Below, one piece after another: positions 16,671 to 53,355 of a stretch of DNA of 64,000 nucleotides. Under the pieces are notes generated by a model, which was not told the origin of the DNA, did not search any database, and saw only the letters and a program-made list of their open reading frames with translations. The DNA is from an uncultured Spirochaetota bacterium (GTDB lineage Bacteria > Spirochaetota > Spirochaetia > SZUA-6 > CAVTHK01): the NCBI GenBank assembly GCA_963734495.1, contig CAVTHK010000007.1, positions 128,001-192,000 on the forward strand. Reading direction: 5' to 3'. Made by a program: the position numbers and the translations under genes. Within the stretch, counting starts at the first letter, position 1; each line of letters opens with the position of its first letter.

Positions 16671-19600
16671 ATGTCGCGCTCGTGGCCCGTGCTCATTTTC
16701 CTGTGGTGCGTGGCGACGGCCCCGGCGCAGGAGGCTCCCCCGCCGCTGCCCGAAGAGGCCCCGGAAGCGCTGTTCCAGACCACGATCGGGTCGAGCGACG
16801 TCGAGATGTTCCTGGACGGGTCATGGAGCGCGGCGGCCAGCGGAGTCGTCGGTTTTCTCCTGCGCTCCGGCGAAGGGATCCAGCCGCTCGACGCCTTCCC
16901 CTCCCTGCCCCTCGGCTTCGACTTTACCCAGGTGCCCGAGCTCACCTTCTCAGTGTGGCTGCAGAAGCACTACTTTGTCGAGTTCACCGTCCTCGGCAGC
17001 TTCGAAGACAACGCCTTCCGGGCGGGCTACCAGAGCGACGACGGGCTCCTGCGCAGCCTGGTCGTGGGCAACCGGGACATCGCGATCGATCCCTACCCGT
17101 ACCTGACCGTGCCGGAAACCGGCGACTCCAGCCTCGGCGCCGAGGCCACGCTGGTCTCGGGCGCGAGCCGCCACGAGTTCCTCGTCCGCTTCGACAACAA
17201 CTCCAGCGGCAAGAAAGTGTTCGTGGGGAAGAATGAGGTTGAAGAAGTTCGCATCCCGCTGCCGGCGTACGAGCAGGGCCTTCGGCTGCGGCTGCCGGAT
17301 TCGGGAGTCGACGGCCTGCGGCTGTACCTCGAGGACCCCGACGGCAGCGTCCCCGGCGGCGACGGCAGGCGCTACCGGCTCGCGAGCACCGACGACGCCA
17401 TCGCCGACGCGGTGACGGGCATCATCACGCTGAAGCAGAAGCCCTTCGGCCGCGTGCTGGTCTACTACACCAAGGGCGGGCTCGCGGTGGGCGACCCCGG
17501 CCTCGGTCAGAACGCGATCGCGACCGTGAATGGCGGCTCGACGGGCGCGGTCGATCCCGATGTGCCCCGCCAGTTCTTCTTCGCCGATGCGGCGCCGCTG
17601 TGGCCGGGCGGGCCGCTCGCCTCGAGCCTGCAGGTCTCCATCGAAGGGCGCACGGCGCTGCTGCTGCGCGATCGCGGCGTCTTCTCGCTCTTCGACGTTC
17701 AGGGCTCCTACCTCGTGAGCCAGACGCTGCCGCAGGAGCTGTGGCGGGTGATCGCGAAGGTCGTCGAGCGCGACGGGTACGAGGCGCGGGGCACGCAGCC
17801 CGGCGCGACGCTGCGGGTCGACCCCGACCTCCAGAGGCTGGTACTCACGCTCGCTACGGACGCGAGGGATTTGCGCAATCTCTACCCTCTGCTCGGCGAG
17901 GATGCGACCGGGGCGCGTCTCTACGGCCCGTTCCGCGACGATTCCGCCGGGCTGTACAGCCGCGAGATCCTGCTCCAGATCCTCACGCCGATCACGACGT
18001 ACGTGCTGGAGTCCGACATCCTCGCCGGGTCGGTGTCAGTGACGCGCAACGGGAACCCGGAAACGCGGTTCACCGTCGAAGCCAAGACGGGCGTCATCAC
18101 CTTCGTGTCGCCGATCGGCCCCTCGGACAGGCTGGAGATCACGTACAAGAAGAAGGGCGCCCTGCTCGACAACGGCGACCTCGTCCTCGCCTGGGGCAAC
18201 CGCTTCCCGCTGAGCGACCCCTTCGAGGCCGAGCTGGCCGCCGGCTTCCGCTGGAACGCGCTCCCGGGCGCCTACTCCGAGAAGCCGTTCACCCGCACCG
18301 GCGCGGTCCTGCTCTCGGGCGGCATCCAGGGCAAGCTCGACAACTTCGATCTCGATGTCGAGGCGGCGGTCTCGTACGCGCACCCCGACACGACGGGCCG
18401 GCTGCGTCTGGCCGGCATGGAGGCGAGCGGGCTCGACCTGTCGCTCGACGAGAACCTGGCGCTGCCCGCCTCGCGCGCCCGGCGCGCGGCCGCGAACGAC
18501 GAGACTGGACAACCGCGGCAAGCTCCTCTACAAGGACTACCGCGACTACGGCCTGCTGGGGTCCTTCACCCTTCAGGGCCCGGATTGGAGCATCCCTTCG
18601 AAGCAGGTCTTTCCGTACGAGACCGGCTCGAAGCCAGGCCCGTACAACGTCGCGGGCGGCTCGACCGACGACATCGACAAGAGCCTGGTGCTCGACTTCG
18701 ATCTGCAGGCCGGGCAGTGGGCGGGCTTCGAAATCCCGGTCCTCCCGGGCCAGCCCCTTCCCGATCTGTCGAGCATCGACGCGCTCATCACCGAATACAA
18801 GATGCTCGAGCTCAGCCCAGGCGCCTCCGTCGACGTGGTGGTGCAGATCGGAGACGTCGCCGAAGACGTGGACGGCGACAAGATCCTGGACGAGGAGGCG
18901 TCGGCTTCGTCGACAGGATTCCTGTTCAACGACAGCGGCAACGGCGTGGTCCTTCTCGTCGGCGGCGGTCCCAAGGGCGAGGGCAACGAGCGCAAGGACA
19001 CGGAGGACCTGGACGGCGACCGGTTCCTGCAGACGCTGGACGGGTTGCTGGTTTCGGGTACTGCCGAGACCGCGCTGGGCACTGCGACCGGGTGGAGAAT
19101 CGCGCGCCGGCTCTTCAGCTCCGACGACCGAAAGAACCTGCGCCGGAGCCGGGCCATTCGCGTCTACGTGAGCGCCGGCGCAGCGGCGGCGAAAGGCCGC
19201 CTTCTCATCGACAAGCTCTTCCTCGCGGGCTCGACGTTCGCCGTCACGGCCAGCACGGACGGCACCACCGCCGTGCGCGAGGTGGCGGAAAGGCTCGCCG
19301 CGTTCCCGCCCGCCAAGTCACTCGAGGAAACGTTCAGGGCCGTCGTGAGGGACGTGTTCCACGCGGGCGGCGAGACGCAGGATGTGCTCGAGATCCAGAC
19401 CGGAACCTCGCAGGAGTGGACCGTGCGAGGATTCACCACCACGGGAACGGAAGGCGCGCGCTACGGCGAGGTGGTGCACTACCTGCGGGTTCGGCAGTGG
19501 AACCCGGGAGCGCCCCTCGCATTCGCGCTGCTCGACGACGAGGGCAAGGGGATCCGCTGGAGCTTCACGCCCACGGCGTCCGACGCATGGCACGAGGTGC

Positions 19601-21522
19601 GGGTAGACACGGAGAAGCGGCGCCTCACGATCGACGGCTCCGTTCCGACGGGAGCCAGCGTTACCGTGGATTCGCATCGCTCTCTGGTGCAGTTCCTCAT
19701 TCTGTCGCAGGGCGGAAACGGATCGAACGGCTGGGTCTACGTCGACGAGCTGCACATGGCGTCGCCGATCGGGAGCATCGGCGCGGCCGTCGGCGTCGAC
19801 ACGGAGCTGCGCGTCCCCGGGCCGCTCGTACGCGTCGGCGGAGTGCCGGTGGTCTCCGACCTGCGGGTGCGCGAGATCGCCAGCACCGTCACTCCCGGAT
19901 TCTCGCCGCTGTACGGCCGGCCGACGCCAGCCTGGGGCGGCTCCTCGCGGACGGAGCTGGGGATGGCGCTGCCGGCGAGCCAGCTCGACACGCATTTCGT
20001 GGTCGATTGGACCGACGCGGAGGCGACCATCGGCGGCGGACACACCCTGCAGACGATCGTGGGCCCCGTCTCGGTCCTGGACCGCTTCGACCTGAGGGCT
20101 CCCGGCCCTTCCGCGGCATTCGACCGGGAGAGCCGCGTCCGCGTGGCTCCCGTGCCCGGGACCGCGTTCGACGCGGGCGCGCTGGCCGCCACGAGCGAGG
20201 ACCGCCTGACGCAGACCTGGACCGGGACGATCACCTCGGCCGCCGGCCGTGCCCGCGGGAGCCTCGTGACCGATCTCGGGCTCTCGACCCTCGACTACGT
20301 GCACCGCGAGCGCGGCTACTTCGACTCCTGGGTCCTGGGCTACCGCCTGTATGCGCCCGTGACCGCGCCGCTGCTCGAGCGCACGTCGCGCGCCGCTTTG
20401 GAGCTGGCGCTCGAGCCCATGCCGGTCGGGCTCACGCTGCAGCTCACGCCCTCGACGCGGAGCGTCCCTTTGGGCGACGGGCGCGAGCAGCGCGACGGGC
20501 TCACGGCGCGCCTGGCGGCCCCGATGGCCCTCGACGACAGGGGCACCATCCTCACGGCGTCCTATCAGCGCGAGATGGAGATCACAGCCACTCAGACCCG
20601 AGTGGGCGGCTTCGACGCGGACTGGACCGAGTTCGCCGCGGACCTCGCGGCCCAGAGCTACTTGACCTCGGGCATTCCTCTCTGGGAGCTGTACGCGAGC
20701 GACGAGGACTTCCAGGAGGCATCAGCGGACGCGACGTCGGCGCTGTACAAGCCTCAGGTCCAGCTCGAGCTCGAGCGCAGGCCCGGCTCGCGCATCGCCC
20801 ATCTCTTCATCCCGACCAGGCTGGACGCCAGCGTGGCGAGGGACCTCGAGAAGGAAGGCGCGCTCTTCTCGTCGCTGTACGTCTACTCCATCGCGTACCA
20901 GACCAATGCGATCAACCTTTTCGGCCGCCTGGGAGCCTACCCGACCTTTTCCTTCTACGACCTGGACGAGATCTCCAACAGCATCAGCCTCGCCCTCAGC
21001 TACGACCGGAACGAGACCCTGCAGAGCGGCGACATCCGCCTCGACTCGCTCGTCGGGCTGGAAGGCGGCGCAGGCAACCAGTTCACGGTTTCGAACCGGC
21101 TCTCCATCACAGGCACCACCTTCGACAACGTCGAGAACACTACCTCCGCGAGCTACACGTGGTTCGTGCGGCCGGAGGGCGGCGTGCCGCTGCCGCTTCT
21201 CGGAAAGGACATCACGCGCGAGGCATTCTACGCCCACGACGAGTCCCTGGAGCTGACCACGACGTGGGGCTCCAGGCCCGCGACGGGACTCGTGCGCCAC
21301 CGTACCGAGATCCGGATCCCGGGACACGGCTACATCGCGGCCACGGCGGCCCTCGGCGTCGACTTCGAGAAGTTCCGCGCCGCGAGCGGATACGGCTACG
21401 ACCGGGTGACCCGCTTCGCCGCGCAGGGCGGCATCGAGGCTCTGATCCGCTTCGGCTCCGGGGAGCCGAGGCGCGAACGCGAGCCCGCGCCGCGACGCGC
21501 GCAGGAGGGTCGTCCCCCGTAG
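16671..21522 (+). CDS. Large (~1600 aa) outer-membrane protein resembling T9SS translocon SprA/Sov; indel near 18470-18500
   Basis: Signal peptide; the frame of ORF 15666 continues in the frame of ORF 18355; motifs FDFTQ, LVVGN, GSVSVTRNG, NRGKLLY, GPYN, QIGDVAEDVDGD, DTEDLDGD; amphipathic beta-strands at the C-terminus. Confidence 0.7.
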
Positions 21523-21590
21523 CGCGCCCGCGCGGTCTGGAAGTGCGAGGCAATGGGTCTATATTCTGATTAGCTTCCCCGGAGGTGTTC

Positions 21591-22934
21591 ATGAGCAGGA
21601 TTTTCCTCGCGCTCGCCTTCGCGATTGTCGTGTGCCTGGCTCCGGCGGCGGCGCAGGAGCAGGGCGGAGGGCTCAACTTCGCGCTGGGCCTCGGCCTCGG
21701 CGTCGAGACGTTCGGAGACGAGACCTGGCAGAAGATCTCTCTGACACCCGACCTGGCTTTCGGCAAGTTCGGCATCGGCATCGACGTGACCGTCCACTAC
21801 CGCTTCCAGAACAGCGAGTTCACGGTCCTGGCCGATGACTGGGCCCCCGATCCGTTCACTTTCCAGGAGACGCTCAGCCTCTATCTCGCGAAGTTCCGCT
21901 ACGTGCGCTACGGCCTCAAAGGCGATCCCCTCTTCGTCAAGCTGGGCTCGATCGACGACGCGACCCTCGGCAACGGCTTCATCATGGGCAACTACGCGAA
22001 CACGCTGTTTCTCCCCGAGCGGCGCGTGTTCGGGCTGAGCCTCGACGTCGACGGGCGGCTGTTCAGCTTTCCCTACGTGGGCATGGAGACCTTCGTGGGC
22101 GATCTTTCGGCGTTCGACGTCATGGCGGCGCGCCTCTACGTGAGGCCGCTCGCCGGAACGCAGATCCCGGTGCTTCGCGACCTGCAGCTGGGGACCACGT
22201 TCGCCGCGGACTTCGATCCCTACCGCTACTCGAGCTCCGTCGAGGAGGCCGCGGCGCAGCTGGCCGGGATCGACACGAGCGACGCGAGGATCTACGTGGC
22301 CGGGGTCGACTTCCGCCAGCCGCTCCTCGACTCCGCCGCGTTCAGCCTCGCCGTTTTCGGCGACGCCGTCACGCAGCGGATGGACGCGTACGGCGGGATG
22401 CTCGGCGTGGGCGGGCGCGTCATCAAGATCTTCACGTACGGGGCGCAGATCCGCTTTATCGGCGACAACTTCGTTCCCGTCTACTTCGACTCCGTCTATG
22501 ACATCACGCGCGCCCAGCGCTATGCCCTCACCGAAGGCGCGATGAGCACCCCCGGCTTCGTCGGTTGGTTCGCATCGATCGGGACGAGCCTTCTCAACGA
22601 CAGCATCGTGTTCAATGTCAGCCTCGACGGCCCGTTCGGCGAGGTCGACCCGAACAACGACGCGAGCTACCTGAACTCCAAGCACCTGACGGGGATGTTC
22701 GCCGTGGCCGAGGGCCTCCTGCCGGGCTTTTTCTTCGACGCGTCGTACGACAAGCTGCTGATCGACACCTGGAGCGACGTCTTCGAGTCGAACGGCGCGA
22801 CCGCCAAAGCGCGGGTGAACTACCGCTCCGGCCCCGCCGTGATCTCCTTCTTCTACCTGCTCAAGTACAACTCCAACGACTGGAACGACCCGGAAGTGAG
22901 CTCGGGGCTCGAGACCCTCGTTCAGCTCAAGTAA
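21591..22934 (+). CDS. Putative beta-barrel outer-membrane protein
   Basis: Signal peptide (AAA/QE), alternating hydrophobic strands, paralogous to the C-terminal part of the next gene; GGAGG RBS. Confidence 0.7.
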   Translation: MSRIFLALAFAIVVCLAPAAAQEQGGGLNFALGLGLGVETFGDETWQKISLTPDLAFGKFGIGIDVTVHYRFQNSEFTVLADDWAPDPFTFQETLSLYLAKFRYVRYGLKGDPLFVKLGSIDDATLGNGFIMGNYANTLFLPERRVFGLSLDVDGRLFSFPYVGMETFVGDLSAFDVMAARLYVRPLAGTQIPVLRDLQLGTTFAADFDPYRYSSSVEEAAAQLAGIDTSDARIYVAGVDFRQPLLDSAAFSLAVFGDAVTQRMDAYGGMLGVGGRVIKIFTYGAQIRFIGDNFVPVYFDSVYDITRAQRYALTEGAMSTPGFVGWFASIGTSLLNDSIVFNVSLDGPFGEVDPNNDASYLNSKHLTGMFAVAEGLLPGFFFDASYDKLLIDTWSDVFESNGATAKARVNYRSGPAVISFFYLLKYNSNDWNDPEVSSGLETLVQLK

Positions 22935-22947
22935 GGGAGGCACGACC

Positions 22948-25116
22948 GTGAAGCTGTCGCGAATGTCGATCGTACTGGTCCTCGCCCTTGCCGCGTCTGC
23001 CGCCTTTGCACAGAACCGCGTGGTCCTCTCGTTCTTCGAGGACAAGAGCGGCGAGCTGCGCATCGTCGGCCCCAAAGGCGAGCAGGAAAAGAGCTCCGGG
23101 CAGCTGTCGTTCGGCGACGAGGTGCCCGTGGGATGGACCGTCGTCACCGGCAAGGACGACAGCGTCGAGCTCACCATGCCGGGCAACGGAACCATCGTCA
23201 AGCTCGCCGAGAACACCAACTTCAAGATCGAAGCCCTGCAGGGCAGCGGCGGCGCGACGAGCAACGACTTTGCCCTCGGCTTCGGCAAGCTCCGCGCCGT
23301 GGCCGCGCGCACGAAGAGCGACAGGTACAACGTGCGCGGGCAGACGACGGTCTGCGGCGTGCGCGGGACCGACTTCGGCATGAGCATCGAGGTGGGCATC
23401 GAGCAAGCCTTCGTCTTCAAGGGCGCCGTCGACTTCAAGAAGCTCGCCGGGGGCCCTTCGCTCGTGATCAACGCGGGCGAGTTCGCCAACGCCCTCGCCG
23501 CCTCGTTCGCGGCCGCCCGCATGAGCTCGGCGCAGGCCGCCGCGCTCGAGAGCCAGCTCAGGTTCACGAAGCTCGACCCGGCCTCGGTGCCCCAGGTCGC
23601 GGCTGCGGAGACTCCCGTCCAGCCGGCGCCCGAGATGCCGCCCAAGCCCGAAAGCAAGCCGGCCCAGGGCGGCTTTATCGACACGCTGCTCGGGGCGCTG
23701 GGAATCGAGATCGGGTCGCTGACCATCGGCGACCAGACCTACGCCAAGGCCGTCATCTCGCCCACGATCTCACTGAACAAGCTCAAGATGCAGCTCTACC
23801 TGCCCGTCATCTACCAGGACGACCTGTTCAACCCCAACAAGTGGTACAAACCCCGCGGGAACGACGAGTGGTCGTTCGGCATCGACCAGGGGAACGACTG
23901 GGCGGACATTGCGGGAGATTTCTTCGGCGACCTCGCGCTCAAGTTCAAGTACCTTCAGTATGGGGACCAGCGCGATCCCTTCTTCTTCAAGATCGGGAAC
24001 CTCAACACGTTCACGGTCGGCCACGGCCTGATCATGCGCAACTACGCCAACGACGCGGAGTTCCCGGCGGTCCGGCGCGTCGGTCTCAACGTCGGCGCGG
24101 ACTTCAGGACGGTCGGCTTCGAGGCCATCGTGAACGACCTGGCCGACATCCAGATCGCGGGAGCCCGCCTGTATCTCCGGCCGGCGCCCGGCACGTTCCC
24201 CCTGGCGTTCGGCGTGAGCGGCATCGTGGATCTCTACCCCGCGCGCGGCCTCGGGGAGTCGCCCGCCGTCCCCGGCAGCGACTGGAAGGACGTCATTGGC
24301 GACCCGATGCTGATCAACGCCGGCCTCGACCTCGAGTACGCGCTCATCGAGCGCGACATGCTCTCGGTCGTGCTGTTCGGCGACATCGCCGGCCTGATGC
24401 CCTACTACCGCAAGGACGGCGTGGGGCCCTACGCGGGGATCAGCGAGGGCCTGGCAACCGACACCCTGATCGTCGACGGAAAGCTCCGCAACTACGGCTG
24501 GATCGCGGGAGCTCTCGGCAACGTGGGGCCTCTCGACTGGCGCGGGGAATACCGCTACTACACCGGCGCTTTCGTGCCGGAGATCTTCAACAATATCTAT
24601 GACAAGGAGCGCGGCCGCTACGCCCAGAACATCGCGCTGTACTCGACCGACCCGGCCGCAGACCAGTTCGACGCGCTGACCATGGGCATCTACGGAGAGG
24701 CTGGCTGGACCTGGGAGAAAGTCTTCTCGTTCAGCGCGGGCTACTTCTGGCCCTTCACGGTCGACGGGGGGAGCTGGAAGCCCGCCGAGATGGACTACCT
24801 CCACATGCAGGCCAGGCTCGAGCGCGGCGTCATACCGTTCGTCAACGTCGCAGCCGCGATCGCGTACGACCGCTACTACTTCGTCCCGATGCTGCTGAGC
24901 GGCAGGGGAAGCGACGGGAACACCTACCGCCTGTTCGACGCCAACACGGTCGTCACGAGCACGCTGTGGTACGGCATCAGCAAGACGGTCGACCTGGTGT
25001 TCATCGCCACGACCTCCCTGGCGCGCGACGCGTACGGCAACATCCTCTACCAGGACGACGGCACGACGCCGGAACTGGCCACTACCATCAGCATCGAGAC
25101 CCAGATACATTACTAG
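22948..25116 (+). CDS. FecR-domain protein fused to a putative beta-barrel domain
   Basis: FecR motif VKLAENTNF...TTVCGVRGTDF...VFKGAV; Pro-rich linker; C-terminal aromatic beta-signal TISIETQIHY. Confidence 0.75.
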   Translation: MKLSRMSIVLVLALAASAAFAQNRVVLSFFEDKSGELRIVGPKGEQEKSSGQLSFGDEVPVGWTVVTGKDDSVELTMPGNGTIVKLAENTNFKIEALQGSGGATSNDFALGFGKLRAVAARTKSDRYNVRGQTTVCGVRGTDFGMSIEVGIEQAFVFKGAVDFKKLAGGPSLVINAGEFANALAASFAAARMSSAQAAALESQLRFTKLDPASVPQVAAAETPVQPAPEMPPKPESKPAQGGFIDTLLGALGIEIGSLTIGDQTYAKAVISPTISLNKLKMQLYLPVIYQDDLFNPNKWYKPRGNDEWSFGIDQGNDWADIAGDFFGDLALKFKYLQYGDQRDPFFFKIGNLNTFTVGHGLIMRNYANDAEFPAVRRVGLNVGADFRTVGFEAIVNDLADIQIAGARLYLRPAPGTFPLAFGVSGIVDLYPARGLGESPAVPGSDWKDVIGDPMLINAGLDLEYALIERDMLSVVLFGDIAGLMPYYRKDGVGPYAGISEGLATDTLIVDGKLRNYGWIAGALGNVGPLDWRGEYRYYTGAFVPEIFNNIYDKERGRYAQNIALYSTDPAADQFDALTMGIYGEAGWTWEKVFSFSAGYFWPFTVDGGSWKPAEMDYLHMQARLERGVIPFVNVAAAIAYDRYYFVPMLLSGRGSDGNTYRLFDANTVVTSTLWYGISKTVDLVFIATTSLARDAYGNILYQDDGTTPELATTISIETQIHY

Positions 25117-47112: not shown

Positions 47113-48018
47113 ATGGAGCCCTTCTTCGTCGTGAATCCCGTCTCGGGCGCGGGGCGGACCCACCGCCTCTGGCAGAGGATAGGCCGCGGTCTCCCCTTTG
47201 CCCTGACGCGCGGCCCGGGCCACGCGACGGAGCTGACCGCGGACGCCCTGGCGCGGGGCGCCGGACTGATCGTGGCGGTCGGAGGCGACGGCACGCTCAA
47301 CGAGACCCTGAACGGTTTTTTCGAGAACGGCCGGCCGCGGAGGCCGGACAGCGCGCTCGCGATGCTGCCCAGCGGCACCGGGGGCGATCTCGCGCGCACG
47401 CTCGGGCTCGCGCACGTGCCGGCGGAGCGGATGGTCGCCGGGCTGCGCAGGGGCAGGCTCGTGCGGCTCGATTGCGGCCTCGCGCGCTTTCGCGGAAAGA
47501 CCGGACCCGTCGAGCGCAGGTTCCTGAACGTCGCGAGCGCGGGTTTTTCCGCCCTGGTCGCCCAGAAGGTCAACACGAAGTCGAAGGTCTTCAGCGGCAA
47601 GCTCTCGTTCTTTTCCGCCGTGCTGAGCACCCTGGCCGCGCTCCGCAACGAAACCATGTCCATCCAGGTGGACGGAGCGACCCTCTACGAGGGCCCGGTG
47701 TTCTTCGCGGCGGTGGCCAACGGGCGATTCTTCGGCGGCAAGATGATGATCGCGCCTCATGCGGAGCCCGCGGACTCCCTCTTCGATGTCGTGCTGGTCA
47801 CCCGCTTTTCCCGGCTCGACGTCCTCCGTCACATCGGAAGGATCTACAAGGGCACGCACCTCTCGCTTCCGCAGGTCAAGTGGGGGCGCGGAAGACGCGT
47901 CGTCATCCGCTGTGCGGCCGAGGCGCCGCTCGAGATGGACGGCGAGCAGCCGGGCGCGCTCGACGCGAGCTTCGAGATTCAGCCCGGCGCGGTCCCCTTT
48001 CTCCTGCCCGCGACCTGA
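47113..48018 (+). CDS. Diacylglycerol/lipid kinase (YegS/DAGK) family
   Basis: VNPVSG, GGDGTLNE, PSGTGGD, NGRFFGG, EMDGE. Confidence 0.9.
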   Translation: MEPFFVVNPVSGAGRTHRLWQRIGRGLPFALTRGPGHATELTADALARGAGLIVAVGGDGTLNETLNGFFENGRPRRPDSALAMLPSGTGGDLARTLGLAHVPAERMVAGLRRGRLVRLDCGLARFRGKTGPVERRFLNVASAGFSALVAQKVNTKSKVFSGKLSFFSAVLSTLAALRNETMSIQVDGATLYEGPVFFAAVANGRFFGGKMMIAPHAEPADSLFDVVLVTRFSRLDVLRHIGRIYKGTHLSLPQVKWGRGRRVVIRCAAEAPLEMDGEQPGALDASFEIQPGAVPFLLPAT

Positions 48019-48140
48019 GCGCGCGCCTCCGAGCCGGCGGCGCATCGGCATCGACCTCGCTGTAACCTTTTCGCAGTGCCCTGCAGCCCGCCGTACCCGG
48101 CAGGTTGATAATGCCTGACTCGGGCGCTACCCTTGCCTGC

Positions 48141-51100
48141 ATGAGGAACCTCCTGTTGCGGGCGGGCATCGCGCTCTCGCTCACGCTGCCCTTGTTCGCC
48201 CAGTACGAGCCGCCTAACGGGACGGTGCGCATCGACGAGTTCGTCTCCCCGCTCCTGCTCTCCGGCGCCGGCGACGTGGCCACTTTCGAGCCGCCGGCGA
48301 GCGACGTCCTGAACCCCGCCACGTCGGGCGCCACCCAGCGGACGACCGTCGACCTTTCGTACGTCACGCTCGCCGGCCTCGGCGACGAGTCCGGCCTCGG
48401 CAGCGCGCTGAACGTCGGGCTCACGAAGCCGACCCGCGTCGGCGTGTTCAGCGGGAGCGCGAACTTCCGCGCCGCATCCTTTGCCGACGTGGACTGGGGC
48501 TCCCTCGCCTCGCTGAATCTCTCCTTCGCCAAGGACCTCTACCCCAACCTCCTGGTCGGCGTGGGCCTCGGCTTCACGTACGGCACGCAGACCAACGCGG
48601 ACTGGGCGCTCGGGCTCGATCTCGGGTTCCTCCACCTCGCCGGTGACGTGGGCCCGTTCCGCGACCTGAGGTGGGGCGTCGCGCTGCGCGACATCGGCAA
48701 AGGCTTCGAGCCCGATCCCAATCACGACCCGTACCCGGCGCCGTTCACGCCCGCCATCGGGGCGCAGGCCACGATCGTGCGCACAGACGGGTTCGCCCTC
48801 GGGGCGGGCACCGATCTGAGCTTTGCGGGCTTCCGCGACGTCGGCATGGCGGTCGGGCTCGAAGGCGCGATCCGCGACACGGTCTTCCTCCGCGCGAGCT
48901 ATCTCTTCGATTCGGCCGAGGCCCTGGGCGTTCTGCCTTCACCTTCGATCCCTCTGTCTTTCGGCGCCACCGTGAAGATCAAGACGGCGCTCAAGGAGAA
49001 CATCGACTTCCTCGACATCACCAAGCGCGGCTGGAACCGCAGCGAGGTGCGCATCAACCTTTCGGCGACGCCCATGCCCGGCGATGTCTGGGCCTTCGGC
49101 GTCGGGGTGAACATCCCGCTGGGCGTGGTCGACCGCAACCCGCCGAAGATCTCCCTCGGGGCTCCTCCCGAGGTCTACATCTCGCCCAACCAGGACGGCG
49201 TCCAGGACGATTTCGTGACGCCGCTCTCGATCCAGGACGAGCGCTACGTGCAGGGCTACCGCTTCGTGATCGACGATCCGGCGGGTCGCGCGGTGCGGAC
49301 CATCCTCAACAAGGACGAGCGGCCGGAGAACGTGACGTTCAAGAACATCCTCGCGAGGCTCTTCTACGTAAAGAGCGGCATCCCGGTCCCCGACACGCTG
49401 CGGTGGGACGGGCTCTCGGACCAGGCGCAGCTGGTGGCCGACGGCCGCTACAGCTACTACGTCGAAGCCTGGGACGACAACGGCAACCTGGGCAGGAGCG
49501 AGACCAAGACGATCGTGGTCGACAACACCCCCCCGACCGTCAAGGTCTCGGCACCGTACCTCATCTTCTCGCCCAACGGCGACGGCAACAAGGACACCCT
49601 CCCGGTGGAGCAGAGCGGCTCGCCCGAAGACCTCTGGAGCGGAACGGTGCGCGGCTCGGCAGGCGAGACCGTGGCGACGCGCGAGTGGAAACAGGGTCCG
49701 CCGCTTCCGTTCGAGTGGGACGGCCGCGCGTCCGCCGGCGCGCTGGCCCCTGACGGCGTCTACGCATATCACGTCGAGGCCACCGACCGCGCAGGCAACC
49801 GCGGGTCCGGCGACCTGCCCAACATCATCGTGAACACGCAGGCGACCCCGATCACGCTGTCCGTAGACGGCGCCTTCTTCTCGCCCAACGGCGACGGGAT
49901 CAAGGACACCATCGACCTCGCGCCCGGCGTCCCGGTCGTGAGCGGCATCGAGAGCTGGACGCTCCGCATCGAGGACGGCTCGGGCGCGGCGCGCAGGGTC
50001 TATTCAGGCGAAAAGCAGGCGCCCGGCACCATCCGCTTCGACGGCCGGGACTCTTCGGGCGCGACGCTCGCGGAGGGCGCCTACCGCGGCGTCCTCGAGC
50101 TGCGCTACGCCAGCGGCAACAGGCCCGTCGCCGCGTCGCCGGCATTCACCATCGACCTCACCGCGCCGACGGTCTCGGTCCGCGCAGACCTCGACGTCTT
50201 CTCGCCCAACGGCGACGGCAACAAGGACGTCGTGACGATCTACCAGGAAACCAGCGAGGAGGTCGGCTGGGCCGGCATCATCCGCGACGAGCGCGGCAAC
50301 GTCGTGGATCGCCTGTTCTGGCGAGGCCGGGCCGAAACGCCGGTGACGTGGGACGGCCGCGGCAGCGACGGCAGGCTTCTTCCCGATGGCCTCTACACCT
50401 ACATCCTGCAGACCACGGACCGCGCGGGCAACTCGGCGGCGTCGGCGCCCGTGAAGATCCGGATCGACACCGAGGAGACGCCGGTCATCCTCACCAGGGA
50501 CCTCGCGGCCTTTTCGCCGAACGGCGATGGGAGCCGGGACCGCGTCGCCATAGTCCCGCAGCTCCGCCGCGCGACCGACATCGATTCCTGGCAGCTGCGA
50601 ATCCTGGACGCCTCGGGCCGCGCCTTCCGCTCGATCGAGCGGAAGGGCGAGGCGCCGTCGCGCTTCGAGTGGGACGGCCGCACGGACGCGGGCGTACGCG
50701 CGGGCGACGGCGAGTACGTCGCCGAACTCACCGTGCTCTATGCCAACGGCAACAGGCCCGTGGCGCGGACCGCGCCGTTCGCCATCGACACGGTGTTCCC
50801 GCAGATCGAGCTGTCCGCTGACCGCCTGCTGTTCTCGCCCGACGGCGACGGCAGGGCCGACGTGGTGCGCATCACGCAGAAGTCCAGCACGGAGGCGCTC
50901 TGGGAAGGCGATATGCGGGCCGCCAACGGCGACGTCGTCCGCAGCTGGTTCTGGAAGGGTGTCGCGGGGAACTTCGCGTGGGACGGGAAGGACGAGAACG
51001 GGAACGCGGTCCCCGACGGCGCGTACACCTACACCGCCCGCAGCACCGACGCGGCGGGCAACAAGACGGAGCGCGGCATCCAGCGGATCGTGGTCGACAG

Positions 51101-52154
51101 CCGGCCTACGCCGGTCTTCGTGACCGCCGGCTCGAGCGGCTTCTCGCCGAACGGCGACGGGTTCCGCGACACGATCACCTTCAATCTTTACGTGAACCTG
51201 GCGCAGGGCATCGAAGGCTGGCAGCTCGCGCTGTCGCAACCCGGCGGAAACCCGGTCAAGACGTTCAGCGGGACGTCGACCGTCCCCGCCCAGGTGACCT
51301 GGGACGGCAAGGGCGCGCCCGAGGGGCTCTACAGCGCGAAGTTCACCGTCCAGTATCTCAAGGGCAACCAACCGGAGGCGAGCACCGCGCCCTTCCGGCT
51401 CGACGTGTCGCCGCCCAGGGCTGCGATCACCGTGAGCCCGAGGCCGTTCTCGCCCGACAACGATGGAGTGGACGACGAAGTCAAGCTGGGCCTGGACGTC
51501 GATGATCCCTCGGGGATCCAGGCCTGGGCCCTCGAGATCCTGGACCCGACGGGAAAGGTCTTCCGGAAGTATTCGGGGACGGGCAAGCCGGCGCCGCAGA
51601 TCATCTGGGACGGCCTGTCGCCGGGCGGAGAGCTCGTGCAGGCTGCCGAGGACTACCCGGTGAGGCTGGCCGTGTCAGACGGCCTCGGCAACACGACCAC
51701 CGTCCAGTCCGTGATCCCGGTGGACGTCCTGGTCATCCGCGAAGGCGACAAGCTCAAGATCCGCATCTCGAGCATCACGTTCGAGGCCAACACCGCGAAC
51801 TACCTCACGGTCGAGCCGGACAAGGTCGAGAAGAACCTGAGGACCCTCAAGAGGCTCGCGGAGATCTTCGAGAAATACAAGACTTACGACGTGCGGATCG
51901 AGGGCCACGCGGTCAACCTGAGCTGGGCGGACCCCGTCGCGGCCGAGCGCGAGGAAAAGGATGAGCTGGCGCCTCTCTCGCTGGCCCGCGCCGAGGCGGT
52001 CAAGGCCGCGCTCGTGGACCTCGGGATGGACCCGAAGCGGATCACGACCGCCGGGCTGGGGGGCCGCTTCCCGGTCGTGCCCCACGGCGACCTCGAGAAC
52101 CGATGGAAGAGCCGGCGCGTCGAGTTCGTGCTGGTGCGTCCGGACCGGCGATGA
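48141..52154 (+). CDS. PorV/FadL-like N-terminal barrel + 8 FlgD-Ig/CHU_C-like repeats + OmpA_C domain
   Basis: Signal peptide; LNPA hatch-like motif; eight (F/I)SP(N/D)xDGxxD...(W/F)DG repeats; IEGH...LSLARAEAVK...RRVEF. Confidence 0.8.
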   Translation: MRNLLLRAGIALSLTLPLFAQYEPPNGTVRIDEFVSPLLLSGAGDVATFEPPASDVLNPATSGATQRTTVDLSYVTLAGLGDESGLGSALNVGLTKPTRVGVFSGSANFRAASFADVDWGSLASLNLSFAKDLYPNLLVGVGLGFTYGTQTNADWALGLDLGFLHLAGDVGPFRDLRWGVALRDIGKGFEPDPNHDPYPAPFTPAIGAQATIVRTDGFALGAGTDLSFAGFRDVGMAVGLEGAIRDTVFLRASYLFDSAEALGVLPSPSIPLSFGATVKIKTALKENIDFLDITKRGWNRSEVRINLSATPMPGDVWAFGVGVNIPLGVVDRNPPKISLGAPPEVYISPNQDGVQDDFVTPLSIQDERYVQGYRFVIDDPAGRAVRTILNKDERPENVTFKNILARLFYVKSGIPVPDTLRWDGLSDQAQLVADGRYSYYVEAWDDNGNLGRSETKTIVVDNTPPTVKVSAPYLIFSPNGDGNKDTLPVEQSGSPEDLWSGTVRGSAGETVATREWKQGPPLPFEWDGRASAGALAPDGVYAYHVEATDRAGNRGSGDLPNIIVNTQATPITLSVDGAFFSPNGDGIKDTIDLAPGVPVVSGIESWTLRIEDGSGAARRVYSGEKQAPGTIRFDGRDSSGATLAEGAYRGVLELRYASGNRPVAASPAFTIDLTAPTVSVRADLDVFSPNGDGNKDVVTIYQETSEEVGWAGIIRDERGNVVDRLFWRGRAETPVTWDGRGSDGRLLPDGLYTYILQTTDRAGNSAASAPVKIRIDTEETPVILTRDLAAFSPNGDGSRDRVAIVPQLRRATDIDSWQLRILDASGRAFRSIERKGEAPSRFEWDGRTDAGVRAGDGEYVAELTVLYANGNRPVARTAPFAIDTVFPQIELSADRLLFSPDGDGRADVVRITQKSSTEALWEGDMRAANGDVVRSWFWKGVAGNFAWDGKDENGNAVPDGAYTYTARSTDAAGNKTERGIQRIVVDSRPTPVFVTAGSSGFSPNGDGFRDTITFNLYVNLAQGIEGWQLALSQPGGNPVKTFSGTSTVPAQVTWDGKGAPEGLYSAKFTVQYLKGNQPEASTAPFRLDVSPPRAAITVSPRPFSPDNDGVDDEVKLGLDVDDPSGIQAWALEILDPTGKVFRKYSGTGKPAPQIIWDGLSPGGELVQAAEDYPVRLAVSDGLGNTTTVQSVIPVDVLVIREGDKLKIRISSITFEANTANYLTVEPDKVEKNLRTLKRLAEIFEKYKTYDVRIEGHAVNLSWADPVAAEREEKDELAPLSLARAEAVKAALVDLGMDPKRITTAGLGGRFPVVPHGDLENRWKSRRVEFVLVRPDRR

Positions 52155-52272
52155 CCGGCTGCGCCCTGCCCGGCGGCGGGGCGCGGTCCGCCCGGCACCG
52201 AGGTGCCGTCAGAGCTTGACGGGGAACCCGTAGCTCACGCCGAAATCGTCAACCTTGCCCGCCGCCCCGAAG

Positions 52273-53355
52273 TCAGACGATCTCCAGGGCATCGCGGGGA
52301 GGCAGCGCCGGGAAGGGCGCGGCCGGCAGCGTCTGGTACCAGAACGCCACCGAGGAGATGTCGTCCTGCAGCGGCAGGTAGCGCCTCCCGCTGCGCCAGC
52401 CCAGCGCCTGGATCGTGACGCGCAGGTCACGCTCGAAGCGGATCGGGTCGACGACGTGCCAGCGGTAGAGGCTGAAGCGCTGCTGCGAGCGGTAGAGGCC
52501 GTCTGGCCTCTGCACCTGCGACAGCCCGGAGTACGGCGTGGTGAACTCGCGGTATCCGCCCTGGTCGGCCCCGACGTCGAAGTTGTAGGCGCCGCAGAAG
52601 TAGTCCTCGGTGCCCGTGCCGCAGATCGTCGGGAACTCGCCGTCGCCGTCCATGTGGAACTTGATCTCGCCTTCGCCCCACCAGCCCGAGTTGTTGACGC
52701 CCCATGCCATCGCCGTCCCGACGTAGTGCCCGCGCCCTCGCACGCCGTCGACGATGGTGTAGACGTCCTTGTACGGAAGCGGGTTCGCCCTCCGGAACTG
52801 CGCGTGGAAGTACGCGCAGTCTTCGGGCACCTCGGTGAGCGTGTAGTCGACCTGGTAGTAGAGCGTCGTCTCCTCCTGGCCGATGTTGGTCATGGTGACG
52901 CGGGCGCCCTTGCGGAACGGCATCTCCCAGTATGAATTGAAGGCGCGCGCCGGGTTGACGCAGACCGCGAGCGAGGAGATCTGCGCGTACGAGCCCCAGC
53001 CGCACGCAAAGAAATCTCCCACCGGGCACTCCACCGAAGGCTGCCGCAGCCCGTCCCAGTAAACACGGAGGATGTTCTCGCGCCAGACGCCCTTCATCGT
53101 CATCCAGAGATGCTGGAGCGCGCCCGAGCCTTCGATGGCCGCAAGCGTGAAAGTCTCGCCGGGCTTGATGCGGACCGACGGCGAGATCTTCCAGCCGCGC
53201 CCGAGGTCGCGAGCGCAGGCGGCGCCGGTGCCCTCGGTCGCCATCCCGCCCCCGCCCTTCTCGCCCGTGAAGTTCTCGGGGCTGATCGAGCGGCTCTTCG
53301 CTGCCGAGAGCCGGCTCAGGTTGCCCATGTGCATGCCGAGACCGTCGAAAGACAC
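52273..53355 (-). CDS. DUF2961 / glycoside hydrolase family 172 protein
   Basis: [60 protein letters not shown]. Confidence 0.88.

Follow-up and report, generated by a model that had tools for sequence, protein, structure and literature searches.

We analysed a gene at positions 48141–52154, on the forward strand, of a 64,000-nucleotide stretch (hereafter the window) of contig CAVTHK010000007.1 from an uncultured Spirochaetota bacterium. Its product combines in one chain an N-terminal domain with a predicted FadL/PorV-type barrel fold, eight immunoglobulin (Ig)-like domains and a C-terminal OmpA_C-like domain. On balance, we favour the view that this protein is a single-chain outer-membrane-to-peptidoglycan tether of defined length, in effect an OmpA analogue built on a FadL-fold barrel. 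Searches of open-access papers and bioRxiv returned no description of a barrel–Ig rod–OmpA_C architecture.

Architecture of the barrel-rod-anchor protein

The gene is one uninterrupted open reading frame (ORF), from an ATG at 48141 to a stop codon at 52152–52154, encoding 1337 amino acids. Its third-position guanine-plus-cytosine (GC) content of 0.92 is high, as is typical for coding sequence in this DNA. The features of the gene are as follows.

48141–52154, forward strand: whole gene, 1337 codons plus stop (ORF list, translation, third-position GC)
48141–48203, forward strand: Sec signal peptide, residues 1–21, ending ..LFAQ and followed by a conserved Y-x-P-P mature start (read from the translation)
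48204–49130, forward strand: predicted FadL/PorV-fold domain, residues 22–330, with a hatch at about 22–66 and the strands of a 14-stranded beta-barrel at 68–327 (structural model)
48312–48320, forward strand: NPA motif of the hatch, N58-P59-A60 (conservation in 44 aligned barrels)
49137–49526, forward strand: Ig repeat 1, residues 333–462, a unique barrel-proximal domain with an insertion of about 22 residues (repeat hidden Markov model (HMM) envelopes, eight-repeat alignment)
49527–51407, forward strand: Ig repeats 2–7, residues 463–1089, three a-b pairs (pairwise repeat scores; FlgD_ig and CHU_C matches)
51408–51728, forward strand: Ig repeat 8, residues 1090–1196, a unique anchor-proximal domain (repeat HMM, alignment)
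51729–52151, forward strand: OmpA_C-like domain, Pfam match at residues 1234–1321, with a non-canonical pocket G-H-A-[V/N] ... E-L-x-P-L-S-x-x-R-A (Pfam)

Signal peptide cleavage is predicted after ..LFAQ from the translation together with the family consensus AYxPPxGG at the mature N-terminus of the aligned barrels. In Pfam, the 1337-residue protein matched FlgD_ig (E 2.2e-46, seven stretches) and CHU_C (E 7e-35, five stretches), and also Big_13, while residues 1234–1321 matched OmpA at 38.2 bits (cut-off 27.2; E 1.8e-9). Residues 1–335 had no Pfam match in a query table extending to E of 1. A promoter and terminator scan of 47800–52500 gave no promoters and three terminator-like sites, all of them intragenic, versus 1.8 expected from shuffled sequences.

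The N-terminal domain is predicted to adopt a FadL/PorV fold

An AlphaFold2 model of the N-terminal domain, built on 44 sequences, has a mean predicted local distance difference test score (pLDDT) of 90.9 and a predicted template modelling score of 0.84, and consists of an N-terminal segment of short helices (the hatch) followed by 14 strands. When the model was submitted to Foldseek, PorV chains of the T9SS (type IX secretion system) translocon and FadL ranked first (E 1e-9 to 1e-7). The top PorV chains were 8gl6_F (E 1e-9) and 6h3i_F (E 1.1e-7); chain F of both entries, 8GL6 and 6H3I, is what we take to be PorV. The initial annotation, made from the DNA letters, had proposed a PorV/FadL-like barrel here. 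The model agrees with that proposal, and the motifs cited for it (LNPA, LSFAKDL..LLVGVG, ALGLDLG, WGVALRDIG and GLEG..FLRASY) are all present in the translation.

At the sequence level the domain stands apart. A search with residues 1–335 against 1.84 billion representatives recovered 291 relatives at E up to 0.001, 89 of them at E up to 1e-30; many of these are 1320–1400 amino acids long, some 1530–1900, and others are stand-alone barrels of about 340–375. Twenty-five stand-alone homologues gave nothing above a Pfam cut-off (5 of the 25 had sub-threshold matches to other barrel families), and no FadL-type Pfam model, presumably the one named Toluene_X, appeared in their tables at E up to 0.1. 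Likewise no family exceeded its cut-off for 47 aligned barrels at E up to 10. The PorV models NF033710 and PF19572 found no match in the protein, and a barrel profile run against sequences in the PDB returned chance-level matches only (E 0.24 and 1.5). By ESM features, the nearest neighbours were 23 unnamed Spirochaetota clusters (0.98), followed by PorV-domain clusters (0.97, 191 of 256 features), which we treat as a lead only. Because the modelled fold matches while no known family's sequence models do, the N-terminal domain is a new sequence family with the FadL/PorV fold.

Residues N58, P59 and A60 are each at least 90% conserved across the 44 aligned barrels and, by an alignment offset in which model residue 26 equals FadL residue 1, would correspond to FadL N33-P34-A35. 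This NPA hatch motif is essential for the conformational change of FadL (PMC8407342). The protein could conceivably be primarily a FadL-type uptake channel for hydrophobic nutrients, its rod and OmpA_C domain serving to immobilize the barrel or to couple it to periplasmic acceptors. We regard this as unlikely; it is compatible with a tether. Against it, no FadL-type Pfam model was found for the query (E up to 1) or among the 47 barrels (E up to 10), FadL-fold barrels are also known in structural roles, namely PorV and BamG (PMC12611786), and a transporter would not account for a rod of eight domains, conserved and discrete in number, that leads to a wall-binding domain. Since NPA is conserved, residual transport is conceivable, and a barrel acting in a tether may still transport hydrophobic compounds as well.

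Eight positionally differentiated Ig domains follow the barrel

A regular-expression scan found exactly eight [FIL]SP[ND]xDG motifs, at residues 347, 476, 580, 687, 791, 898, 1001 and 1103, each with [WF]DG 50–75 residues downstream. The motifs are spaced 102–107 amino acids apart, with a first interval of 129. Eight repeats carrying SP[ND]xDG and a downstream (W/F)DG had been described before, and the scan arrives at the same count; their proposed kinship to CHU_C and FlgD was borne out by the domain scan, in which both families lie above their Pfam cut-offs. The pattern is far beyond chance, since the repeat HMM finds eight domains both in this protein and in 49 of the 61 relatives that are complete.

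Alignment of the eight units revealed alternating subtypes, with pairwise scores of 206–230 among repeats 2, 4 and 6 and 169–219 among repeats 3, 5 and 7, against 57–129 for other pairs; repeats 1 and 8 are unique. Of three eight-repeat orthologues compared, two showed a one-to-one correspondence for every repeat and the third for all but repeat 5. Repeat numbers were counted with the repeat HMM in 80 ORFs (the relative loci L004–L082 and the genome's own paralogue), a gene being taken as complete if it had no contact with the locus end and carried a terminal RRVE-type motif. The 61 genes that qualified have 4 (two genes), 8 (49), 10 (three) or 12 (seven) repeats and never an odd number, the other 19 being partial. 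Four-repeat forms retain repeats 1, 2, 7 and 8. In the 10- and 12-repeat forms the extra repeats are internal and have repeats 2–6 as their best matches, and in the two 10-repeat forms compared they are a duplicated 2–3 pair. By these alignments, length varies through loss or gain of internal two-domain units. Given the positional orthology and the even, discrete counts, the rod is ancient, differentiated by position and altered only in two-domain steps.

Each Ig repeat (49137–51728) starts with an acidic S-P-[ND]-x-D-G-x-x-D motif near the inter-domain junction. The motif might bind a metal ion and so stiffen the rod.

The CHU_C-like repeats are internal structural Ig modules rather than C-terminal sorting signals. 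A sorting signal would be expected as a single C-terminal domain (CTD) at the extreme C-terminus, with a cognate PorP/SprF; here eight internal copies precede an OmpA_C domain. Internal repetition of sorting-like domains had been called unusual, but it is the rule in this family, which comprises at least 860 protein clusters.

A divergent OmpA_C-like domain closes the chain

The Pfam match above its cut-off confirms the C-terminal OmpA_C domain named in the initial annotation. The further claim, that this domain anchors the protein to peptidoglycan, is borne out by the identity of the domain and not by its pocket, where two of the three canonical binding residues are missing. The closest solved sequence relative is 5jir_B (E 1.5e-8), presumably the structure of Treponema pallidum Tp0624. 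In canonical OmpA_C domains the motif is TD(x)7NxxLSxxRA, with critical Asp, Asn and Arg residues (PMC5104382). Of the 66 family members compared, 64 have V, N or A at the Asp position (the other two being untabulated), in the context A-[V/N] after G-H; the Asn position is Leu and the Arg of LSxxRA is retained in all 66. Tp0624 has also lost the Asp, and diaminopimelic acid (DAP) was not bound in its authors' hands; most spirochaetes have ornithine in place of DAP (PMC5104382). We conclude that the C-terminal domain is a real OmpA_C whose pocket seems adapted to something other than DAP.

In this genome only four frames carry OmpA_C, and two of these are the barrel-rod-anchor protein and its 10-repeat paralogue. 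On the same contig, about 155 kb past the window end, a frame of up to 755 amino acids (L090, 1829–4093, reverse strand) has a C-terminal OmpA_C match of 60.8 bits preceded by about 650 residues that fall in no Pfam family. Its product is possibly another wall-linked envelope protein.

The family is widespread in Spirochaetota and occurs naturally as fused and split forms

In a collection of species-representative genomes, 210 stretches encode relatives, of which the best 79 loci were fetched and compared. By title all 79 are Spirochaetota metagenome-assembled genomes (MAGs), and most align over residues 1–1333; the relatives returned from named records are likewise from Spirochaetota only. 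A search at E up to 1e-10 returned no fewer than 860 clusters (90% identity), in length classes of about 1322–1363, 1527–1549, 1673–1786 and 2243–2265 amino acids. Their names are generic only: 'FlgD immunoglobulin-like domain containing protein', 'OmpA family protein' and 'gliding motility-associated C-terminal domain-containing protein'. The barrel family is present in 154 of 301 sampled Spirochaetota genomes. The genome of the window has a paralogue on contig 11 (L003, 2699–7393) of 1564 amino acids with 10 Ig repeats, in which the barrel is 43% identical and the extra repeat pair is a second copy of repeats 2–3.

Among the matches listed, 19 barrels lie in short frames of 345–416 amino acids. 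At all three split loci examined, found in genomes of the same class (L087, 7717–11891; L088, 4104–8407; L089, 7885–12071), a barrel gene of 349–356 amino acids is followed by a rod-anchor gene of 1038–1059 amino acids encoding eight Ig domains and OmpA_C, and the stop and start codons overlap or nearly abut. The split point is exactly the linker between barrel and repeat 1. This arrangement suggests that the two genes are translationally coupled and reflect either a natural fission or an unfused ancestral state at the domain linker. Because fusion and fission both occur naturally, barrel and rod-anchor can be regarded as distinct modules that belong together. A complex prediction for a split barrel with Ig domains 1–2 scored 0.51, against 0.00 for the best of three controls, with at least 98% of contacts agreeing between runs and a partner pLDDT of at least 82. 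Of 157 solved complexes, 116 reach the mark set for this score, as do 2 of 215 mismatches; at values up to 0.60 it is reached by 18 of the 157 and both mismatches, so the result lends weak support.

The rod-anchor proteins of the three split loci have their own Sec signal peptide and no lipobox, which argues that the rod-anchor part is periplasmic. The same would follow for the Ig rod of the fused form, since an even-stranded barrel ends on the periplasmic side and the split form relies on Sec-only export.

This topology bears on a further reading, in which the protein would act as an adhesin on the cell surface, comparable to Leptospira Lsa66, and its Ig repeats would bind host or substrate polymers outside the cell. 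The best NCBIfam match is indeed Lsa66_OmpA (NF053608; E 1.3e-83, residues 838–1216), and binding of Lsa66 to laminin, fibronectin and plasminogen has been reported, as has its detection on intact cells (PMC3130794). However, the match covers profile positions 95–488 only, and its 281.4 bits fall below the equivalog cut-off of 700; the Ig-OmpA tail alone is matched, and the protein does not qualify as an equivalog of Lsa66. Whatever lies between a 14-stranded barrel and OmpA_C is placed in the periplasm, and the split forms, with their plain Sec signal peptide, have no way to cross the outer membrane. The named relatives come from the environment, as MAGs and isolates, and are not host-associated organisms. 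An adhesin therefore seems extremely improbable to us.

A proposed tether between outer membrane and peptidoglycan

We propose that, after Sec export, the N-terminal 14-stranded barrel would insert into the outer membrane, the eight Ig-like domains would form a rod in the periplasm, and the terminal OmpA_C-like domain would bind peptidoglycan non-covalently. A typical Ig domain is 3.5–4.5 nm long, from which the extended rod would measure roughly 30 nm. The terminal domain may be tuned to the spirochaete wall, which in most species contains ornithine and would lie far from the outer membrane with flagella between. The number of Ig domains would set the reach of the tether, changing only by whole two-domain units. 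A spacer or ruler role of this kind fits the conserved, even and stepwise repeat number. A long reach makes sense in view of T. pallidum, in which the peptidoglycan lies farther from the outer membrane and the flagella are located between the two (PMC5104382). One survey, taking OmpA to be PF00691 together with any barrel, named it the only tether system in Spirochaetes (bioRxiv 10.1101/2021.05.31.446380). By that definition, the present family would presumably have been scored as 'OmpA' without being described.

Several observations weigh against a tether. The rod length is an estimate only, and wall binding is a prediction for a pocket that has lost Asp and Asn and whose most similar solved domain, in Tp0624, showed no DAP binding (PMC5104382). 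The retained NPA motif, used for transport in FadL, suggests that the barrel may do more than anchor, and the complex score for the split pair is a weak pass only. The genomic context lends no support to an envelope role: the neighbours encode an ECF (energy-coupling factor) transporter, a lipid kinase and phosphoenolpyruvate carboxykinase, and they are conserved at just one of the 79 relative loci, the closest (L004). Finally, three large sampled spirochaete families (0 of 45, 0 of 38 and 0 of 6 genomes) and a 1.1-Mb closed genome of family f2 gave no match to the barrel family, which is for that reason not a universal spirochaete tether.

The location between membrane and wall would also suit a periplasmic scaffold for the endoflagella, in which the FlgD-like Ig rod contacts or confines the filaments instead of measuring wall distance. 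FlgD_ig is the strongest Pfam match of the protein, and the flagella of treponemes run between their outer membrane and the wall (PMC5104382). Nevertheless, FlgD_ig is a generic Ig module, no flagellar genes lie nearby, and the barrel family was not found in the three large sampled families, which together make a flagellar scaffold highly unlikely.

Relation to the type IX secretion system and to a SprA-like gene

The initial annotation had read the protein as three T9SS-related modules joined in one envelope-spanning tether. The modules and the idea of a tether stand, but HMM searches of the genome (5.38 Mb, 83% complete) returned no T9SS core gene. There was no match to SprA_N, SprA or GldM, although the SprA and GldM controls matched no control genome either, and none to PorV (two models) or PorP_SprF; GldK-like matches were far below the cut-off (104 against 350 bits). 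A T9SS reading of the protein is only partly supported. The same annotation had pointed to a SprA-like gene within the window:

16671–21522, forward strand: SprA-like giant outer-membrane barrel gene in two frames, a possible partner (Foldseek, structural model, intact orthologues)

The frame switches between about 18475 and about 18502. Orthologues are uninterrupted, at 1610–1617 amino acids, and contain no Pfam domain; the break in the window is likely an assembly error. A model of the C-terminal 1055 residues (the 18355–21519 product; pLDDT 81) has SprA chains as its four best Foldseek matches (E 8e-16 to 3e-13, TM scores 0.27–0.29); the next match lies at E 1.3e-6, and LptD reaches about 1e-4. 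Ranked by ESM features, its closest clusters are those of SprA_N (0.90, 201 of 256 features), with recognition below the usual mark. The parts of the gene matched neither the SprA sequence models nor anything else in Pfam or NCBIfam, and a family profile had no match among PDB sequences. The evidence on fold is thus mixed: the label 'SprA-like' gains some support from structure and none from sequence models, and the modelled product is probably a remote relative of SprA. Just downstream lies a gene for 449 amino acids (21585–22934, forward strand), followed by a FecR-domain gene (22900–25116). The position of the 449-residue gene is conserved in two other genomes (L084 and L085, about 30–1070; 47% identity), and its product has only a weak NCBIfam match, to the Leptospira membrane protein ImpL63, and none in Pfam.

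Co-occurrence of the two families had been put forward as a check. The SprA-like family was found by profile search in 137 of the 301 sampled genomes, in frames of about 1100–2100 amino acids. Both families occur in 118 genomes and neither in 128, in keeping with an association; against it, 36 genomes have the barrel only and 19 the SprA-like gene only. The shared absences mostly reflect whole lineages. In genus g8 all 12 genomes have the barrel and 7 the SprA-like gene, with one closed genome among those lacking it. Proximity within the window had been taken to fit a connection, but a SprA-like gene lies within 6 kb of none of the 79 relative barrel loci, and in closed genomes the two genes are hundreds of kilobases apart. 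The link between the SprA-like gene and the barrel family is loose.

These data allow a more specific version of the T9SS idea, in which the protein is part of a T9SS-related outer-membrane module. The barrel would dock on the SprA-like barrel and hold CHU_C-like domains as PorP holds type B CTDs, anchored to the wall as proposed for PG1035-PorP-PorE. Type B CTD proteins do work in pairs with adjacent PorP/SprF barrels, and PG1035, PorP and PorE have been proposed to form a complex anchored to the wall (PMC12618676). In its favour, too, are the PorV chains at the top of the Foldseek results for the barrel, the PorV-domain clusters as nearest named families by ESM features, and the scores of the repeats against the T9SS type B CTD models, which exceed the cut-offs for CHU_C (PF13585; 119.5 against 27 bits) and TIGR04131 (64.3 against 35 bits). 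The four SprA matches of the 18355–21519 model, the SprA_N clusters nearest to its product and the shared presence and absence of both families across the 301 genomes point the same way. Even so, we consider such a module improbable. A wider proposition is equally doubtful: many spirochaetes would keep a motor-less relative of the T9SS outer-membrane module, in which a SprA-like giant barrel is accompanied by a 14-stranded barrel of PorV/PorP type; the latter would hold CHU_C-class domains and be fixed to the wall through OmpA_C, so that the PG1035-PorP-PorE arrangement of Bacteroidota is condensed into a single polypeptide.

Comparison with known systems

As in E. coli-type OmpA, a single chain begins with an outer-membrane barrel and ends in a PF00691 domain, which implies a link between membrane and wall. 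The predicted barrel has 14 strands of the FadL/PorV fold in place of 8, a rod of about 860 residues replaces a short linker, and the pocket is without the Asp and Asn of TD(x)7NxxLSxxRA. Like members of the FadL family it has a modelled 14-stranded barrel with an internal N-terminal hatch and a conserved NPA, but compared with FadL, TodX and TbuX the domain is smaller (about 310 against about 420 residues), continues into a long periplasmic extension and matches no FadL-type Pfam model. PorV has the same fold; here, in contrast, there is no PorV HMM match, the genome has no T9SS core genes by HMM, and the barrel is fused to a rod and wall anchor.

For the whole chain, the nearest functional analogy may be the proposed PG1035-PorP-PorE complex. 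This Porphyromonas gingivalis complex and the Flavobacterium johnsoniae type B CTD/PorP-SprF pairs likewise bring together an outer-membrane barrel, a barrel-binding CHU_C-class domain and an OmpA_C anchor, and as in our split forms barrel and partner are encoded by adjacent genes (PMC12618676). There, however, three proteins are involved and the CTD lies on the cell surface as a secretion signal within the T9SS (PMC12618676), whereas here a single chain (or a pair) carries eight internal copies, predicted to be periplasmic, and the genome has no PorP_SprF match.

Among spirochaete proteins, the T. pallidum FadL orthologues TP0548, TP0859 and TP0865 also combine a FadL-fold barrel and its hatch motif (NPA or NAA) with a C-terminal extension in the periplasm, but this extension is a small helical bundle resembling tetratricopeptide repeats instead of an Ig rod with OmpA_C (PMC8407342). 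A relation to them at the sequence level was not detected here. Tp0624 resembles the present anchor in having lost the DAP-binding Asp and kept the Arg, and differs in its unrelated N-terminal domains and lack of a barrel (PMC5104382); its motif is TAD(x)6[E/Q]xxLSxxRA, compared with GHA[V/N] ... ELxPLSxxRA and a longer insert here. Leptospira Lsa66 (LIC10258; NF053608) shares FlgD_ig-type repeats followed by OmpA_C, but has no barrel domain matching the one described here, and the score of our protein is under the family cut-off. In OmpM and the split SLH-plus-barrel tethers, a barrel is joined to a wall-binding domain as the lineage's tether, fused or as two adjacent genes; those systems use SLH as the wall-binding domain and a porin as the barrel, and they lack an Ig rod (bioRxiv 10.1101/2021.05.31.446380).

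Implications for the spirochaete envelope

How the spirochaete outer membrane is held to a thin, distant, ornithine-type wall, across a periplasm in which flagella rotate, is an open question. The barrel-rod-anchor family provides a concrete and testable candidate for such a tether, one that is widespread and whose architecture has been undescribed. In enterobacteria, lipoprotein length sets the spacing of the envelope; in the modular rod described here, the number of domains could do so. The family would also be a further example of a FadL-fold barrel put to a structural job, and its naturally paired fused and split forms could serve for mapping the hold of a 14-stranded barrel on a CHU_C-class domain. 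The SprA-like gene, if its remote relationship is right, would place SprA-like barrels outside the phyla known for the T9SS. Were the doubtful motor-less module to prove true, shuttle barrels would have been paired with CTD-like domains before the T9SS arose.

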